From positions 22 through 64,021 of the forward strand of contig CAYQOH010000001.1 of NCBI GenBank assembly GCA_964419075.1: DNA of 64,000 nt, read 5' to 3'. The notes under the pieces were generated by a model, which saw nothing but the letters and a program-made list of their open reading frames with translations, was not told the DNA's origin and made no database searches. Source of the stretch: an uncultured Opitutaceae bacterium (GTDB lineage Bacteria > Verrucomicrobiota > Verrucomicrobiia > Opitutales > Opitutaceae). This document shows, one piece after another, positions 5,739-64,000 of the stretch; position 1 is the first letter of the stretch, and each line of letters begins with the position of its first letter. Both the position numbers and the translations under genes were made by a program.

Positions 5739-6608
5739 ATGAAGGTTCGACCTGAGGACTTCCGCGTCACTCCCGGGCGAAAGGTCAGGCTGAAAGCCTG
5801 GCCGACCGACATCAAGGCGCTGTACAAATCGGACAAACAGTACAAGGAGGCCCTGGCCGACGACGTGCACAACCTGAGCGCGCTCCAGCGCCTCCTGTAC
5901 GCCTCCGACAGCTACGCCCTGCTGCTCATCTTCCAGGCCATGGACGCCGCGGGCAAGGACGGCGCGATCAGCCACGTGTTGAGCGGCGTCAACCCACAGG
6001 GCTGCGAGGTGCACTCGTTCAAGCAGCCGAGCGCCGAGGAGGCCGAGCACGATTTCCTGTGGCGCACCACCTGTCGCCTGCCGGCTCGCGGGAGGCTCGG
6101 GGTCTTCAACCGGTCGTACTACGAGGAGGTGCTGGTGGTCCGCGTGCATCCCGAGATCCTGCAGTCCCAGGGGCTTCCGCAGAAGCTGATGGACCCAAAG
6201 ACGGTCTGGAAGGGCCGCTACCGCTCGATCGTGGAGTTCGAGGAGCACCTGCACCGCAACGGCACGCGGGTCCTCAAGTTCTTCCTGCACCTGTCCAAGG
6301 AGGAGCAGCGCAGACGGCTGCTCAAGCGCATTGACGTGCCGGAGAAGAACTGGAAGTTCAGCCTCGCGGACGTCAAGGAGCGGAAGTTCTGGGGCGACTA
6401 CATGGGGGCGTACGAGGACTGCCTGGGCGCCACCAGCACGAAGGAGGCGCCGTGGCACATCATCCCGGCCGACGACAAGCCCAATGCGCGGCTCATCGTC
6501 TCGCGGATCGTCATCGACGCCCTGAGGGGCCTCGACATGAGCTACCCGAGCGTCTCAAGGGCGAGGCGCGTGGAGCTCCGGTCGATTCGAAGGCAGCTCG
6601 CCGGCTAG
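5739..6608 (+). CDS. ppk2: polyphosphate kinase 2 family (polyphosphate:nucleotide phosphotransferase)
   Basis: [49 protein letters not shown] ... [15 protein letters not shown] is the PPK2 P-loop/lid signature. The ATG at 5739 lies 17 nt after the cbpA-like stop. Confidence 0.85.
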
Positions 6609-6678
6609 GGCCGAGCCTGCAGGACCGAGCCGCGCACGGCTGGCTATCGCCGGGGAAAGGGCTTAGCCTGCGCCGCCG

Positions 6679-7896
6679 ATGAAGCTGGCCCAACCAAGAC
6701 CCTCGCTCCTGGCCGTCAACGGCGGCTCGTCCAGCATCCGTTTCGCGCTGTACGAGACCGGCGCGCGCCTGCGCAGGATCCTCGATGGCAAGGTGGACCG
6801 GATAGGCCTGCCGGGGACCCGGCTAAGCTTCCACGACCGCCTGAAGGACAGTGAGGGCGGCCGTCGAATCACGGCGGCGGACCACCGCACCGCCGTCGGG
6901 GTCCTGCTGGACTGGCTCGAGGCCCGGCCCGCCTTTGCCGCGGTTCGCGCGGTCGGGCATCGGGTCGTGCACGGCATGGCGCATACGGAGCCCGAGCGGG
7001 TCACCCCGAAGCTGCTCGAGGAACTGAAGCGGATCACCCCCTTTGACCCCGACCACATGCCGCGCGAGCTGGAGCTGATCCACGCGTTCATGGAGCGCAA
7101 TCCGGCGCTGCCGCAGGTCGCGTGCTTTGACACCGCGTTCCACGGGACGATGCCGCGGGTGGCAAGGATGCTGCCCCTTCCGCGGCGCCTCGAGGCGAAG
7201 GGCGTCAGGCGCTACGGGTTCCACGGATTGTCCTACGCGTTCCTTATGGAGGAGCTTCGGCGCGTCGCCGGGGCCCGGGCCTCGCGTGGCAGGGTGGTCC
7301 TGGCCCACCTCGGCAACGGCGCGAGCATGGCGGCCGTCTGGAAGGGCAGAAGCATGGACACGACCATGGGGTTCACGCCCGCGGCCGGCCTGGTCATGAG
7401 CACCCGGTCGGGAGACCTCGATCCCGGGATCGTGGGCTTCCTTGCCCGCACGGAGGGCATGACCGCCCCGGAGTTCCAGAAGATGGTGAACCGCGACTCC
7501 GGGCTCCTCGGGGTCTCCGGGACGAGCTCCGACATGCGCGACCTGCTCGGGCGCGCATCGCGCGACATCCGGGCCGCCGAGGCTGTCGCCCTCTTCTGCT
7601 ACGCGGCCAAGAAATGGATCGGGGCGTACGCGGGCGCGCTTGGCGGACTGGACACGCTCGTCTTCTCGGGAGGAATCGGCGAGAACTCGCCGGCCGTGCG
7701 GGCGCGCATCTGCCGCGGCCTCGGGTTTCTCGGTGTCGCGCTGGACGCGAGGAGAAACGCGGCGAATGCGCCGGTGATCTCCAGGCCCGCGGCGCGCGTT
7801 GCCGTGCGGGTGATCCGCACGGACGAGGAGCTGATGATCGCGAGGTCCGTGGTGCGGACCCTCGGCCTTGGGCGGCGCGGCCCGATCCGGTCGTGA
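6679..7896 (+). CDS. ackA: acetate/propionate kinase
   Basis: LLAVNGGSSSIRFALY at the N terminus, GHRVVHG, FDTAFH, RRYGFHGLSY and IRTDEELMIA are all classical AckA motifs. Confidence 0.9.
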   Translation: MKLAQPRPSLLAVNGGSSSIRFALYETGARLRRILDGKVDRIGLPGTRLSFHDRLKDSEGGRRITAADHRTAVGVLLDWLEARPAFAAVRAVGHRVVHGMAHTEPERVTPKLLEELKRITPFDPDHMPRELELIHAFMERNPALPQVACFDTAFHGTMPRVARMLPLPRRLEAKGVRRYGFHGLSYAFLMEELRRVAGARASRGRVVLAHLGNGASMAAVWKGRSMDTTMGFTPAAGLVMSTRSGDLDPGIVGFLARTEGMTAPEFQKMVNRDSGLLGVSGTSSDMRDLLGRASRDIRAAEAVALFCYAAKKWIGAYAGALGGLDTLVFSGGIGENSPAVRARICRGLGFLGVALDARRNAANAPVISRPAARVAVRVIRTDEELMIARSVVRTLGLGRRGPIRS

Positions 7897-34213: not shown

Positions 34214-34741
34214 AGGGGCGGATGCCCGAAAGGAATGCCGTATGATTCGAAGGCTGCTTGCGCCTACGGTGGCAATACGGTGGCCATGCATGGGCGTGAG
34301 CGCAACAGGCTGGGATCGACTTCCAAGTCAAATCGTCACCCACCCGTTGCAGCCCTGCCATGGGTCCGGCCCTTGCTGATCCCAAGCACTCCGCGAGCGG
34401 ATCCCCCGTTTCAAGCGGCCCCTTATGGCGGTCTCGGTGGATTTCCCTTGGGTCTGCGAGATTCGTCGTGCGCAAACCGAGCGGTCCTAGAGCTCTCTTC
34501 GGGTCATATCCAATTATACAACATATTGATCGACAGCGGCAAGGGCTGGGATCCCGACAAGGGACTCTTCAGCTGCCGACCGCATACCGATATATGGGGC
34601 TCGAATGAGCACGGGGGGAGATGCGGGATCTGCTGCTCGATGTTGCTCCATATTGCTCGTAGGTGCATATTCGAGATCACCCTTCCGACTCACATAAGTT
34701 GCGGATTAAAAATATCATCTGAGTGTTTCCAAGGATCTTGA

Positions 34742-34790
34742 TTTGGGTGTAGGGCTTGGATTTGTAGCAGCGGCCTTCAGGTTATGAGCC
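34742..34790 (-). repeat. decayed copy (A) of the 3' half of a tRNA-Met(CAU) gene
   Basis: About 49 nt aligns with copies B and C with roughly 8-9 mismatches or indels, counted by hand. This includes a perfect 17-nt match (CCTTCAGGTTATGAGCC) covering the anticodon loop CTCATAA in tRNA sense. The T-arm is degenerate and there is no 5' half. Confidence 0.55.
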
Positions 34791-35262
34791 GAGTCGTTCC
34801 ATATCCACATGTTGGCGTAATTATGAAGTGGCCGCCAGGAACCGACTGGGAGGAACAGGTACGGGGTCGAGAGGGGTAGCGGATGAGCCGTGTGAACCAT
34901 TACGGGGATTTGCGGTCCGGCGTTTGGTTTTGGGATCACTGCGCCTGATCGATTATTGGGTGGTCGTGTGCGCAGGAGCAGCCGGAGGGTTGCCAATCAT
35001 CCTATATTCAATGCCTATCATTCAGGCTTCGATTCCATTTCAACAACCGCCGGCTCATAGTTAAGGCGTCATTCGGGGCGCCTATGGCAGCGCTCCAGCA
35101 ACCCCGATTCAATTGATTCCCCGATCGCATAATCCATTGGACCACGCACTCCTTCGCGGATGATTCCGCCTAATCCAGCCACGACCCGGGAGAGGCGCGC
35201 AATCCGCAGATCCGGTCTGTTCATCGGATGATCTTACAGGGGCGGCCAAGCTTCCACGGTAG

Positions 35263-60325: not shown

Positions 60326-60675
60326 CCTTCCGCGCGACCCTACCAGTCTGACAGTGTGGCGCAGGATTGTGTCGTTGGCCCGAAGAATTCGAAGTCCAAC
60401 CACGAACTCTCCAGACAAATTGACTTTGGGATTCGGCCGGGAGCCGCCAAGTGCTCGAAGCCCAAAGGAGGGTGGGCGACAAGGTGGCGATTTGGCGCGA
60501 TTTTCGATGCCCTGCCCCCGAGGCAACGGCTCAAGAAGGTATAGGGTCATTTCTCGATCGGGCAGGGGATTGCCACTATCATTGCGTGCAGCCTCGACCA
60601 AGATAGGGGATGCCGGAGAAGGGACCTTATTTCTGGACGCTTGACGGAAATCGCTCGAGGTCCGGTAAGGGGTAT

Positions 60676-60714
60676 CCAAAAGCAAAATCCCCCGTAACCT
60701 TGCGGCTACGAGGG
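60676..60714 (-). terminator. rho-independent terminator immediately 3' of tRNA fragment B
   Basis: On the minus strand the sequence reads CCCTCGTAGCC-GCAA-GGTTACGGGGG (9 of 11 positions pair), followed by ATTTTGCTTTTGG. Confidence 0.6.
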
Positions 60715-60717
60715 ATT

Positions 60718-60769
60718 AGATTGGGTGCAGTGGCTGGATTTGAACCAGCGACCTTCAGGTTATGAGCCT
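60718..60769 (-). repeat. copy B of tRNA-Met(CAU) 3' half (att-like direct repeat)
   Basis: In tRNA sense it reads AGGCTCATAACCTGAAGGTCGCTGGTTCAAATCCAGCCACTGCACCCAATCT. This gives the anticodon loop CTCATAA, a 5-nt variable loop, the T arm GCTGG-TTCAAAT-CCAGC, the acceptor 3' strand and CCA. The matching acceptor 5' strand TGCAGTG and the D arm are absent upstream. Confidence 0.75.
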
Positions 60770-60843
60770 GGCTGGCTTTCTCCGAATTCGACGGCGAACA
60801 CGGTCAGCTTGACGCCGTAGCAAAATGCTACAAATTGATTCGC

Positions 60844-61230
60844 ATGAGCACTATTCCACTTCGCATAGACACGGATTTGGTCAACGTCGCCCGAGAATCG
60901 GCCGCTGTGATGGATCGGACGCCGACGGCCCAAATTGAGTTCTGGGCTAAACTTGGGCGAGTCATGGAGCAAGTCCTCACCCACGATGCCCTGGTGACGG
61001 TAAAAGAGGCTTCTCGGGTCAAACGCCTGGACGAGCTATTGGCAATGGTTGCGACGCCCAAGGGTAAGCAGAGGGCGCTGGCTGTGATTCGCCGTCACAA
61101 GGGACCGACTTACAGTGCGGACCCGACGAAACCAGGAGTGATCATTGAAACGCGGCCTGACGGCTCCAAGCGCCGCGGCAAATTCTCAAACCGCCATTTC
61201 ATGCCCTTGGTGGCAGTGAACTCGGAATGA
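60844..61230 (+). CDS. ParD-like type II antitoxin
   Basis: The N terminus MSTIPLRIDTDLVNVARESAAVMDRTPTAQIEFWAKLGRV matches the ParD-like (PF11903-type) pattern as I recall it. The stop overlaps the next ATG (ATGA at 61227-61230). Confidence 0.55.
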   Translation: MSTIPLRIDTDLVNVARESAAVMDRTPTAQIEFWAKLGRVMEQVLTHDALVTVKEASRVKRLDELLAMVATPKGKQRALAVIRRHKGPTYSADPTKPGVIIETRPDGSKRRGKFSNRHFMPLVAVNSE

Positions 61231-61787
61231 GCGCGCCTCACCTTGTTGTCTTGGCGGGACCCAATGGCGCAGGAAAGTCGACATTCTTCCGCGCTTTCCT
61301 TCGTGGGTCGGGCCTCAAATTCCTTAACGCCGACGACATTGCGGCCAAGCTCAGTCTCTCTGTTTCCGATGCCGCCCGCGCTGCTGACGCACTCCGGACT
61401 AAATTACTCGAGACCCGCGAGTCGTTTATAACAATGACCGTTTTTTCTGACCCGGTTGGGGCCAAGCTCCAGTTCATGAGGGAGGCCCTGGCGAAAGGTT
61501 TTTCTGTCACATTGATCTATATTGGATTGGCCGGACCGGACTTGTCTGAGGCGCGGGTCATACAGAGGGTAGGAGAAGGGGGACATGACGTTCCCTCGGA
61601 CCGGCTGTCTCGCCGCTACAAGCAGTCGCTCTTGAATCTTGTGGCTGCAATGGAGTTCGTTCCCACAGTGCGGGTTTATGATAATTCTTCGGATGAGGAT
61701 CCGTTCCGACTTGTGCTATCGGTGGACAGTGGCCGCAGGAGCGGATCGGACCGTCTTCCCGAATGGCTGGCCAATGCCCTGTCTTGA
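61227..61787 (+). CDS. zeta-toxin-like P-loop kinase / COG4185 ATPase
   Basis: Walker A LAGPNGAGKST, a NADDIA block, about 186 aa, and coupled to an upstream small antitoxin-like gene. Confidence 0.65.
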   Translation: MSAPHLVVLAGPNGAGKSTFFRAFLRGSGLKFLNADDIAAKLSLSVSDAARAADALRTKLLETRESFITMTVFSDPVGAKLQFMREALAKGFSVTLIYIGLAGPDLSEARVIQRVGEGGHDVPSDRLSRRYKQSLLNLVAAMEFVPTVRVYDNSSDEDPFRLVLSVDSGRRSGSDRLPEWLANALS

Positions 61788-61878
61788 GAATTCGCCGCCG
61801 AATATGTGCCAAACGCGTGCCCAAAATGCCTCATTTCATTGCACTCGGCTGCACTCTGCCGTCATTTCAGAAGACACG

Positions 61879-61914
61879 AAGGCCCGCTCGGAAGTGATTA
61901 TCCTAGCGGGCCTT
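61879..61914. terminator. perfect 10-bp hairpin between the zeta-like gene and repeat C
   Basis: AAGGCCCGCT-(16 nt loop)-AGCGGGCCTT. It lies directly 3' of tRNA fragment C in tRNA sense and about 90 nt 3' of the plus-strand zeta-like gene. Confidence 0.45.
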
Positions 61915-61924
61915 AGGGTATCTA

Positions 61925-61976
61925 AGATTGGGTGCAGGGGCTGGATTTGAACCAGCGACCTTCAGGTTATGAGCCT
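61925..61976 (-). repeat. copy C of tRNA-Met(CAU) 3' half (att-like direct repeat)
   Basis: It is identical to copy B at 51 of 52 positions (G versus T at 61938/60731, in the acceptor stem). The upstream sequence GTTTATAGGGAGCTATT cannot form a D arm or an acceptor 5' strand. Confidence 0.75.
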
Positions 61977-62017
61977 AATAGCTCCCTATAAACATCTTAA
62001 GTTCTCTCTGGTGTGAC

Positions 62018-62075
62018 GGACAGGGACCGACTGGGGCGGACAGGGACGGGGACAAAATGGACAGCGTTTGGACAG
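62018..62075. repeat. cluster of five GGACA(G/A) direct repeats next to repeat C
   Basis: GGACAGGGAC at 62018 and 62038, GGACAA at 62050, GGACAG at 62059 and 62070. Confidence 0.5.
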
Positions 62076-62222: not shown

Positions 62223-63659
62223 GTGCAGAAACGCTCCGCTCATTGCCCGATGGATGGCCTCCCTGAGAGTAGCGAGATTCGTGCTGACCAGCTCACCACC
62301 TTTGGTGCAAAGCGACTGGCCAAGTTCATCCTCAAACTCGGAAGCGAGGTAGAGGGCCTGGACGAGAGGATCGAGGCGTTTCTGGTTTCCGACAAGAGCG
62401 AGGATGCGGCCCAGTTGGCGAAGCAACTCATGGCCTCGTTGCGGCGCTCGCGCCAGTTTTATGGTTATGCCCGTGCCTCTGAGCTTGCCGGTCGTTTGGC
62501 GCAGATTCTCGACGTCATCGACACCGCCGTCCTGACCGTTAGCCCGGCTGCGGCCCTGAAATTGATCGTTCGGTTTATGGAAGGGGAGGATCACGCGTTC
62601 GAGAGCGCCGATGATTCCGACGGAGTCATCGGTGACGTTTTCCGACGCGCCTGTGGATTGTTTGTTGAAGCGGCAAAGAGCCTTCCCTCGGCAGATACGT
62701 TACCGGTCCTGAAACAGCTTCTGGCTGAGGATCACTACGGAGTCCGCTATCATTTGCTTAAGGGGGTAGGGCAGTTTCTCGACAATGCGCACTTGGAGGC
62801 ATTTATCGGCGAAACCCAGGCCCTGTTGACGGCTGGCGGCGAGCCTGCTCGTGGGGCCCGTCTGCGTCTCTTGGCTATTGCGGAATCGATCCGGGATCCG
62901 GTGCTCTACGAACAGGCTACCTATGCCGGCTGCGAGCGGGGGATGCCGCCCAACATTGCAGTCGATGTGGGCCGCCACTACCTGGAAGCCGGGCGTCCTC
63001 GTGAAGCACTTGAAAGGCTTCCGGCCAACGCCGATGGCCTTCGCGCCTTCACGCACGACTATTTCGACATGCGGGTAAGAATTTTGGCGGAGCTCGGCGA
63101 TTCCGATGCGCTGCGTGCGGCACTTTGGGCGAGGTTTTTGTGCGCACCAGAGCGCGACACGTTTGAGGAAATGCTCGCGGCTGAACCTCTTGAAAACCGC
63201 GAGCCGCGCCGAATTTCGGCATTGGAGGAGGTCCGGGTCCGACTTCCGGTCCAAGAGCAGTCCGAATTCTTTGCCGAGATCGGAGATCTCGAGACATGCG
63301 CCTCAATCATCTTGAGCGCGCCGGAGAAACTGAATGGCGACCTCTATTTCTTCCTTGTGCCGATGGCCGAAAGGTTAGAGGCGGCGCATCCGTTGGCTGC
63401 CTATTTGGTGTACCGCGCTCTGCTTGAATCAATTCTTCGGCGTGCCGTTCCCAAGACCTATCACCACGCTGCCCGCTACTGGGAGATTCTCCGTTCGCTC
63501 GGGTCTCGCATAGAGGATTGGAAGGGACTTGAACCCCTTCAGACATTTCGGGGGCGAATCGGCCGTGAACATGCCAGAAAGAAGGCTTTTTGGGCGAAGG
63601 TAGAAATGGCTTCCTCTGAAAGCCGAAGTTCGCCCTTGAGCCCGAGCATAGGCGCTTGA
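62223..63659 (+). CDS. DUF6880-like all-helical protein
   Basis: 478 aa (GTG 62223, alternative ATG 62250). The blocks FGAKRLAKFILKL, LRRSRQFYGY and DDSDGVIGDVFRRACGLF resemble DUF6880 family proteins as I remember them. Confidence 0.5.
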   Translation: MQKRSAHCPMDGLPESSEIRADQLTTFGAKRLAKFILKLGSEVEGLDERIEAFLVSDKSEDAAQLAKQLMASLRRSRQFYGYARASELAGRLAQILDVIDTAVLTVSPAAALKLIVRFMEGEDHAFESADDSDGVIGDVFRRACGLFVEAAKSLPSADTLPVLKQLLAEDHYGVRYHLLKGVGQFLDNAHLEAFIGETQALLTAGGEPARGARLRLLAIAESIRDPVLYEQATYAGCERGMPPNIAVDVGRHYLEAGRPREALERLPANADGLRAFTHDYFDMRVRILAELGDSDALRAALWARFLCAPERDTFEEMLAAEPLENREPRRISALEEVRVRLPVQEQSEFFAEIGDLETCASIILSAPEKLNGDLYFFLVPMAERLEAAHPLAAYLVYRALLESILRRAVPKTYHHAARYWEILRSLGSRIEDWKGLEPLQTFRGRIGREHARKKAFWAKVEMASSESRSSPLSPSIGA

Positions 63660-63692
63660 CGCTTCGATCGGCCACCATCCCCATTCTGGACT

Positions 63693-64000
63693 ATGCCCCG
63701 TATCTTTGTCATTGGTGGACCTAACGGCGCCGGGAAAACCACGATTGCGGGCGGATTGTTGCCTGAAATTCTGGAGTGCGATGAGTACGTTAACGCCGAT
63801 GCGATTGCAAAGGCTCTTTCGCCTTTCGAGTCAGACAGGGCATCATTCAGGGCGGGTCGGGTGATGTTGGAGACGATCCACGACTTGGCAGACCGACAAA
63901 GAGATTTTGCCTTCGAAACCACGATGGCCTCTCGGAGCTTCGTTCCGTTTCTAGCCAGCTGCCGAGACCGTGGTTACGAGATCAACCTGCTGTTCCTCTG
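63693..64000 (+). CDS. zeta-toxin-like P-loop kinase / COG4185 ATPase (partial, runs off window)
   Basis: My own translation is MPRIFVIGGPNGAGKTTIAGGLLPEILECDEYVNADAIAKAL...FAFETTMASRSF...GYEINLLFL. It has a Walker A motif and the same block order as the 61227-61787 product. It is absent from the ORF track because no stop lies in the window. Confidence 0.65.
   Translation, partial: MPRIFVIGGPNGAGKTTIAGGLLPEILECDEYVNADAIAKALSPFESDRASFRAGRVMLETIHDLADRQRDFAFETTMASRSFVPFLASCRDRGYEINLLFL

Follow-up and report, generated by a model that had tools for sequence, protein, structure and literature searches.

Cis-mobilizable elements (CIMEs) and their tandem accretion were reportedly described by Pavlovic et al. 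in 2004. The structural definition of such elements, together with their tandem accretion at attachment (att) sites, is given in PMC5704250. The locus considered here is a 1.2-kb islet in a 64,000-nucleotide stretch of DNA (the window) from an uncultured Opitutaceae bacterium. Like a CIME, it is bounded by attL/attR copies of the 3′ end of a target gene, contains no genes for integration or transfer, and stands in tandem with other elements at one site. In contrast to classical CIMEs, which are kilobase to tens-of-kilobase remnants of streptococcal integrative and conjugative elements (ICEs), the islet belongs to the Verrucomicrobiota, carries a toxin–antitoxin (TA) pair only, was probably never large, and is known here from sequence. 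Collectively, the observations below make it probable that the islet is an integrase-less, att-bounded unit, one of a tandem array at the 3′ end of a tRNA-Met(CAT) gene, with a PezAT-type cargo, ancestrally non-autonomous and now decayed.

Regarding the cargo, a comparable pair is Rv0366c/Rv0367c, the non-canonical PezAT system of M. tuberculosis, which is bacteriostatic and rescued by its antitoxin, and whose organisation has been reported within Actinobacteria only (PMC6362051). Set alongside the published description, both systems combine an N-terminal ribbon-helix-helix (RHH) antitoxin with a short zeta-like kinase. The motifs of Rv0366c, again by description, agree as well (GPNGAGKS, Asp36, a Glu after strand 3, a His near position 120 and no GTXR), and the difference lies in the Met that the present allele has in place of this Glu. 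The best structural matches are epsilon/zeta and PezAT (PDB 1gvn, 3q8x, 2p5t) and AvrRxo1-ORF1/ORF2 (4z8t), with which the Walker A motif and the catalytic Asp are shared; the toxin studied here is, however, approximately 90–140 residues shorter, with 14–19% identity, and its antitoxin is of the RHH type, not epsilon, PezA or Arc1. The TA cassettes of (super)integrons likewise form arrays of short, promoter-bearing TA units between conserved recombination sites. In contrast to those cassettes, the present units are separated by att cores that derive from a tRNA and have arm repeats, instead of by attC hairpins; the boundaries are tRNA halves, no integron integrase is found at the array, and there is no IntI/attI platform. 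The mosAT system of SXT (PMC2654960) is also a TA pair on an integrated element, whereas here the pair is the whole cargo, with nothing else to stabilise. The kind of element is already known, and the row of tiny TA-only units is a neat example of it.

The window covers positions 22–64021 of a 64,668-nt contig in a metagenome-assembled genome of 519 contigs that is 79% complete. The two repeats that bound the islet, B and C (Table 1), are 51/52 identical (98%), and the window contains a 37-nt core of theirs exactly two times, compared with none in 100 shuffles. On the minus strand they correspond to positions 29/30–77 of a 77-nt tRNA-Met(CAT) followed by four trailing bases. This tRNA is identical in all 12 intact copies read, which come from 12 genomes of the same genus. 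Since the window contains tRNA halves only, neither ARAGORN nor Rfam gave a tRNA match in it. Of the 39 genomes of the genus, 27 contain the half pattern, and no fewer than nine have it more than once on a single contig. The tRNA identity starts at CAGGCTCATAA, in the anticodon stem-loop, at more than 25 junctions whose flanks are unrelated, and the halves extend from this point to the CCA end plus AAT(C/T)T. A start in the anticodon loop combined with a run to the CCA end characterises tyrosine integrases whose crossover falls in this loop and which restore the tRNA. The direct repeat described here has exactly this extent, from the anticodon stem-loop to the tRNA 3′ end, and the crossover is placed at the anticodon loop because the identity always begins at CAGGCTCATAA and ends at CCA. 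In this reading, tyrosine-integrase recombination left B and C behind as the attL and attR cores.

The tRNA-Met locus is orthologous across the genus: three of the genomes examined have the same pilus-like genes before the tRNA, and in the relative G021 only one of the two was matched. In G006, G042, G021 and G023, DNA corresponding to the DnaJ region of the window shares a contig with the tRNA-Met array, and synteny with the closest relative, G006, is lost near the tRNA. The present 79%-complete assembly contains neither an intact tRNA-Met nor its upstream pilus-like genes; therefore, the tRNA-proximal end of the array is not visible in this genome. As a separate observation, some att halves show a variant T-stem (GTTGG...CCAAC, not GCTGG...CCAGC), at G002:C1:144936, G002:C6:709809, G008:C3, G008:C68, G017:C121 and G054:C62; at least the one at G002:C1 is not an intact tRNA. 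Elements seem to bring halves from hosts with another tRNA-Met allele.

Between B and C, the only open reading frames (ORFs) with family support are a ParD-like and a zeta-like gene, which share an ATGA overlap at 61227–61230, and no integrase or other gene fragment was found there. The antitoxin matches Pfam ParD_like (PF11903; E 2e-8, 34.5 bits against a cut-off of 23), hence it is not of the epsilon/PezA type. The toxin, with Walker A motif GPNGAGKS, matches Zeta_toxin (PF06414; E 4.6e-9, 36.4 bits against a cut-off of 22.3) and AAA_33 (E 3e-7). Its structural model (predicted local distance difference test, pLDDT, 91.7) has AvrRxo1-ORF1, zeta and PezT as the top PDB folds (Foldseek E ~1e-7, template modelling (TM) score 0.65–0.73 on the query). 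Sequence searches of the PDB, and PADLOC, returned P-loop matches only, and NCBIfam gave nothing specific; approximately 3,900 relatives were found with the toxin and 41 clusters with the antitoxin. Each repeat is followed, in the sense of the tRNA, by a stable hairpin of its own, at 60686–60717 (−24.1 kcal/mol, z −4.9 versus shuffled sequences, with a T-rich tail after it) and at 61879–61914 (−30.5 kcal/mol, z −7.4). An earlier note, made from the letters of the stretch alone, had described B and C as bracketing just two translationally coupled genes, a ParD-like antitoxin and a zeta-type kinase, with a different hairpin after each repeat. The repeat identity, the family and fold matches and the folding energies given above confirm this description on every point.

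In the toxin, GPNGAGKS, with the Walker A lysine (zeta Lys46), and the catalytic Asp36 (zeta Asp67) are invariant in 119–120 of 120 homologues, and Asp36 is aligned with the Asp of the VNRD motif of polynucleotide kinase. Residue 70, in contrast, is Met here and Glu in 119 of the 120, where it belongs to the block SFITETVFSDP. From the order of motifs given in PMC6362051, we infer that Glu70 is the equivalent of zeta Glu116, a nucleotide-site residue (Glu75 in Rv0366c). The GTXR motif for binding of UDP-N-acetylglucosamine is missing, position 70 being followed by TVFSDP. Within the 90% toxin cluster, Met70 is carried by nine of 11 members and Glu70 by two. Because Met stands at an otherwise invariant Glu, this allele may be attenuated or even non-toxic. 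Taking into account the RHH antitoxin and its translational coupling to a short zeta-fold kinase, the cargo is, by predicted function, a type II TA operon of the non-canonical PezAT type.

The same cassette is present at tRNA-Met halves in two further genomes. In G021, the operon (75% nucleotide and 78–79% amino acid identity) is the only inserted element, with a degenerate half on one side and the intact tRNA-Met on the other. CAILBQ010000691 has a perfect half with the same long arm after it, then the cassette promoter and the antitoxin gene, at which point the contig ends. In both, approximately 190 nt with TTTGGGGGAnTTnTTGGGGG extend from the core to the TA promoter, and a complete islet of this presumed ancestral form measures ~1.25 kb. 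The TTTGGGGGAnTTnTTGGGGG motif is located at a fixed distance from the core in five elements, three of them with other cargo, one in G006 and two in G007. It is absent from the copy in this genome, which retains the first ~35 nt of the arm, including the residual arm start (CGGCGAAC), and has lost ~150 nt with the motif. DNA homology with every other copy of the operon begins at 60807/8, that is, at the promoter. The palindrome GTAGCA-AAA-TGCTAC is kept in all operon copies; a promoter scan made no call at the block 60808–60843, and the palindrome over the promoter is probably an operator serving autoregulation. The cassette is missing from G006, which at 91% core identity is the closest relative and is 98% complete.

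The operon is also found in at least three contexts without a tRNA half, always with the same boundaries, twice beside an Xre/RES pair and once beside AbiEii and Fic genes. In such contexts the homology ends at the toxin stop or ~15–70 nt before it. At L027–L030 and L035–L037, two unrelated chromosomal contexts, the operon lies directly downstream of an Xre-HTH/RES (ParST/MbcAT-like; HTH, helix-turn-helix) pair, and a four-gene double TA block may travel together.

Other small islets occur between tRNA-Met halves of the genus (Table 1). Integrase genes were searched for as PF00589 matches in the genome itself, exhaustively in 10 relatives, and across the whole genus among the matches listed (77 further hits are unlisted). 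This contig has no PF00589 hit, and the only tyrosine recombinases of the whole assembly are XerC-like and XerD-like. Among the matches listed for the genus, no integrase lies on an array contig other than G042:C146. On that contig, one more tRNA copy closes the array where the contig itself stops, and before it lie genes for a PF00589 integrase of 396 aa and an HTH protein of 127 aa. An integrase gene beside the tRNA-proximal end is accordingly found neither for the islet nor for its contig, and a neighbouring element in G042 is the only one to have it. This integrase-bearing element (G042:C146:34000–45795, L070) spans 10.8 kb and carries AbiJ_NTD3, DUF2130, SIR2_2, a MacB-type permease and a GGACAG arm, with the HTH gene upstream of the integrase gene; it is a small defence-type island. 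Tyrosine integrases of ~340 aa near contig starts had also been suspected of being linked to the array and were rejected, since they lie beside dnaE and a different repeat, not tRNA-Met (L057–L068, e.g., G020:C87:1–4000 and G050:C89:1–4000, in some genomes of the genus). Contigs at these dnaE loci often break at a common motif, GGCATAAACAACGTT(C)GG. The recurrent break suggests that repeats bound a second integration site or array, one with no relation to tRNA-Met.

Variation at the strain level is directly apparent in public assemblies, which contain 11 toxin variants of at least 90% identity. One 16.9-kb contig has the arrangement of this genome at 99.8% identity. L077–L081 match this contig at 98.1–99.5% from inside B onward (99.5% for L077 and L078), and have another B half, with three single-nucleotide polymorphisms (SNPs), and another left flank. 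In L077, this flank is a 2.6-kb element with a GGACAG arm that starts with another half; L078 has the same DNA, its end not being reached. In these 99.5%-identical strains, the 2.6-kb element, directly to the left of the islet, occupies the place that the 26-kb segment has here, so that the neighbour at B has changed very recently. The B-half SNPs travel with the left flank, in keeping with a crossover at the core edge on the anticodon-loop side. On the other side, one more element comes in L077 after the half at D, which is cut by the contig end in this genome, and the arm of that element has 97% identity to an arm in G002. The array thus has at least five att copies. Two further features of L077 were observed. 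Positions 6580–6853 contain a third arm-repeat type, AAAACA(A/T)AGT(T/C)G, in three copies (97% to the G002:C1 arm). Positions 1100–2035, in the element left of the islet, form an internally repetitive stretch, ~70% identical to many contigs of this genome and probably a repeat-domain coding sequence.

Table 1. Features of the array in the window, followed by small islets between tRNA-Met halves in related genomes (a dot stands for no strand).
Feature	Position or size	Strand	Description
Repeat A	34740–34791	−	Degenerate tRNA-Met 3′ half, 79% to B; outermost att scar; at GC shift from ~68% to ~62%
Arm beside A	34792–34881	.	GGACAG-type; 73% identical to arm beside C
Decayed end of left neighbour	60340–60675	+	3′ tip of zeta2-like gene and broken copy of 56-aa ORF; ~78% to DNA before D
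Hairpin and T-rich tail	60676–60717	−	Just downstream of B in tRNA sense; tRNA-terminator-like end of left neighbour
Repeat B	60718–60769	−	att core; tRNA-Met positions 29–77 with one mismatch, plus 4 trailing nt; left islet boundary
Islet arm remnant	60770–60807	.	Relatives have ~190 nt here with TTTGGGGGAnTTnTTGGGGG repeats; ~150 nt missing in this genome
Upstream block	60808–60843	+	Conserved; TTGACG at 60809–60814; perfect palindrome GTAGCA-AAA-TGCTAC at 60817–60831; putative promoter/operator
Antitoxin gene	60844–61230	+	128 aa; N-terminal ParD-like RHH and conserved C-terminal domain
Toxin gene	61227–61787	+	186 aa; short zeta-fold P-loop kinase; GPNGAGKS, Asp36, His120, Met70 replacing family Glu
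Islet right-hand end	61806–61924	−	Includes hairpin 61879–61914; 87% identical to end of other-cargo G042 islet
Repeat C	61925–61976	−	att core; tRNA-Met positions 30–77 exact, plus 4 trailing nt; right islet boundary
Arm of C-to-D element	61977–62075	.	GGACAG repeats; same arm type at att copies in G042, G023 and G002; integrase-bearing element in G042
C-to-D islet	62223–64000, runs past window	+	2.7 kb, integrase-less; DUF6880, second zeta-like kinase, coupled 56-aa ORF; ends at D
G006 and G050 islets	0.75–0.79 kb between halves		RHH and PemK/MazF (MazEF-like)
G042 islet	~1 kb between halves		RHH and PIN (VapBC-like)
G010 islet	3.1 kb between halves		AbiEi/AbiEii and insertion sequence (IS) fragment
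G042 islet	2.06 kb between halves		Histidine-kinase-like gene

The contig as a whole presents the order chromosomal flank, A, a 26-kb element with decayed ends, B, the TA islet, C, a 2.7-kb element and D, the last att copy lying 609–647 nt past the window. The GC content is ~68% left of A, ~62% from A to B and 56–58% past B. No integrase or recombinase gene was found between A and D. The A-to-B segment (34740–60717) encodes carbohydrate and nitrilase-type enzymes, an MFS transporter, an AraC regulator and a MacB-type permease; its genes include two CN-hydrolases, an MBL protein, two CE4 deacetylases, GH44, SGNH, GH94-like and apiosidase-like proteins. Its proteins have no homologues in the arrays of the relatives, and it resembles a metabolic island that has no recombinase. 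The DNA to the right of A is 73% identical over 139 nt to that on the right of C, with GGACAG repeats in both, and this resemblance of the arms places the 26-kb segment in the same element family as the element right of C. Similarly, the DNA left of B matches that left of D at ~78% over ~410 nt, with a hairpin, a 56-aa ORF and the tip of a zeta-like gene on both sides, all three decayed on the B side. In the C-to-D islet, all three genes are coupled: the DUF6880 match has E 6e-59, the second kinase (190 aa) is 32% identical to the first, and the 56-aa ORF and the kinase stop share an ATGA overlap. Either this ORF, downstream, or the DUF6880 protein, upstream, could be the partner of the second kinase.

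Considered together, these findings point to a unit whose ancestral form, as in G021 and CAILBQ010000691, would be a non-autonomous element with an arm of TTGGGGG direct repeats. The repeats may serve as arm-type integrase sites, and the integrase of another element would integrate the cassette in trans. In the present copy, ~150 nt of the arm are missing, the right end is mosaic, and the toxin has Met where Glu is otherwise invariant. With these three features, the copy is most likely an immobilised relic, possibly detoxified; its flanking att cores may still act as landing sites for other elements. The repeats B and C derive from the target, and no integrase, excisionase or transfer gene lies between them, so that the islet, judged from its letters, fits the structural definition of a CIME and may be classed as a CIME-type relic carrying a pair like that of M. 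tuberculosis.

Several observations weigh against this preferred reading. A cognate integrase for the TTGGGGG-arm family was found in none of the genomes searched, and that of G042 is unique to G042 within the genus and paired with the GGACAG arm type. Scans of the Joint Genome Institute (JGI) metagenome contigs by exact pattern detected neither the empty-site junction nor the circle junction. The divergence of the cassette from G021 (75% nucleotide identity) is near that of the core genome (71%), and vertical inheritance with many losses is a conceivable alternative history. Furthermore, the left half and right end of the 2.06-kb islet of G042 are 86–87% identical to those of the present islet around other cargo, which shows that cargo is exchanged in mosaic fashion within a shared frame. 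Taken with the occurrence of the operon away from tRNA halves, it means that the cargo may have entered a pre-existing frame.

This last point leads to the view that the att copies belong to neighbours or to an older frame, and that a mobile TA operon was inserted or swapped in by homologous or illegitimate recombination, with no integrase involved. The limits of homology agree with it, since they run from the promoter (60807/8) to, at the latest, the toxin stop in four genomic contexts, three of them without tRNA halves; the G042 frame agrees with it too, and the right end is not common to the G021 islet. This view nevertheless appears improbable, because the junction leading from the half, by way of the proximal arm, to the TA promoter is common to G000, G021 and CAILBQ010000691, so that the operon has, at least partly, travelled or been inherited with the att arm, whose residual start CGGCGAAC is still retained in this genome. 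A different origin would be decay in situ, in which a full-size, integrase-bearing island between B and C lost everything except its addiction module. This is the classical CIME route, for which a three-step model of integration, decay to a CIME and accretion has been published (PMC5704250), and both the ongoing decay of the present copy (arm deletion, mosaic right end, toxin substitution) and the visibly decayed ends of the adjoining A-to-B segment are in keeping with it. Against it, the cassettes of G021 and CAILBQ010000691 are equally small, with the arm abutting the TA promoter; no larger relative, as an ancestor of ICE type or an integrative and mobilizable element (IME), was found, and these small copies argue against a recent reduction. 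The space between the repeats also holds no integrase or gene fragment, and the independent TA-only islets of 0.75–1 kb, conserved between G006 and G050, would need repeated convergent reduction to precisely such a pair. An origin by decay in situ is therefore unlikely.

The earlier note had left two origins side by side, the surviving addiction core of a decayed element and a small cassette mobilised in trans. The second fits better, because the cassette is equally small in two further genomes, TA-only islets recur, and an integrase-bearing element stands in the same array of one relative; the first fits less well, even though the present copy looks decayed. The note had also named as a refuting case a local duplication, in which B and C would result from the copying of a longer chromosomal segment. 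The resemblances between the left sides of B and D and the right sides of A and C could be read in this way. Nevertheless, they lie far below the identity of the cores (98%); the arm types concerned recur at att junctions in other genomes and so mark related elements, and B and C have only the 52-nt core in common, their flanks differing on both sides. Duplication was rejected on this comparison of flanks and is extremely improbable, and the reading of the repeats as att-type halves stands.

More broadly, but as a tentative proposal with the odds against it, the tRNA-Met locus might be an integron-like cassette platform built on tRNA-derived att sites. Short integrase-less units, that is, TA pairs and small defence or regulatory genes, would be captured, stacked and reshuffled there, each with its own tRNA-terminator hairpin and with at least three arm types among them; rare integrases would act in trans, and the TA units would stabilise the array. 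By analogy with (super)integrons, such a stabilising role is plausible.

The islet is a natural example of a minimal att-bounded element, consisting of one TA operon, one arm and one hairpin. It shows how a single tRNA gene, in a little-studied phylum, gathers a row of units, and how the make-up of this row changes among near-identical strains. With the natural Glu/Met polymorphism, two alleles are at hand, of which one is predicted to be active and the other inactive. Testable questions follow as to whether minimal cargo can be moved in trans by integrases, whether island arrays are stabilised by TA units, and which substrate the widespread short zeta-like kinases act on. The rows of TA-only mini-islets at one tRNA, with several arm families, are a more interesting lead than the single islet.

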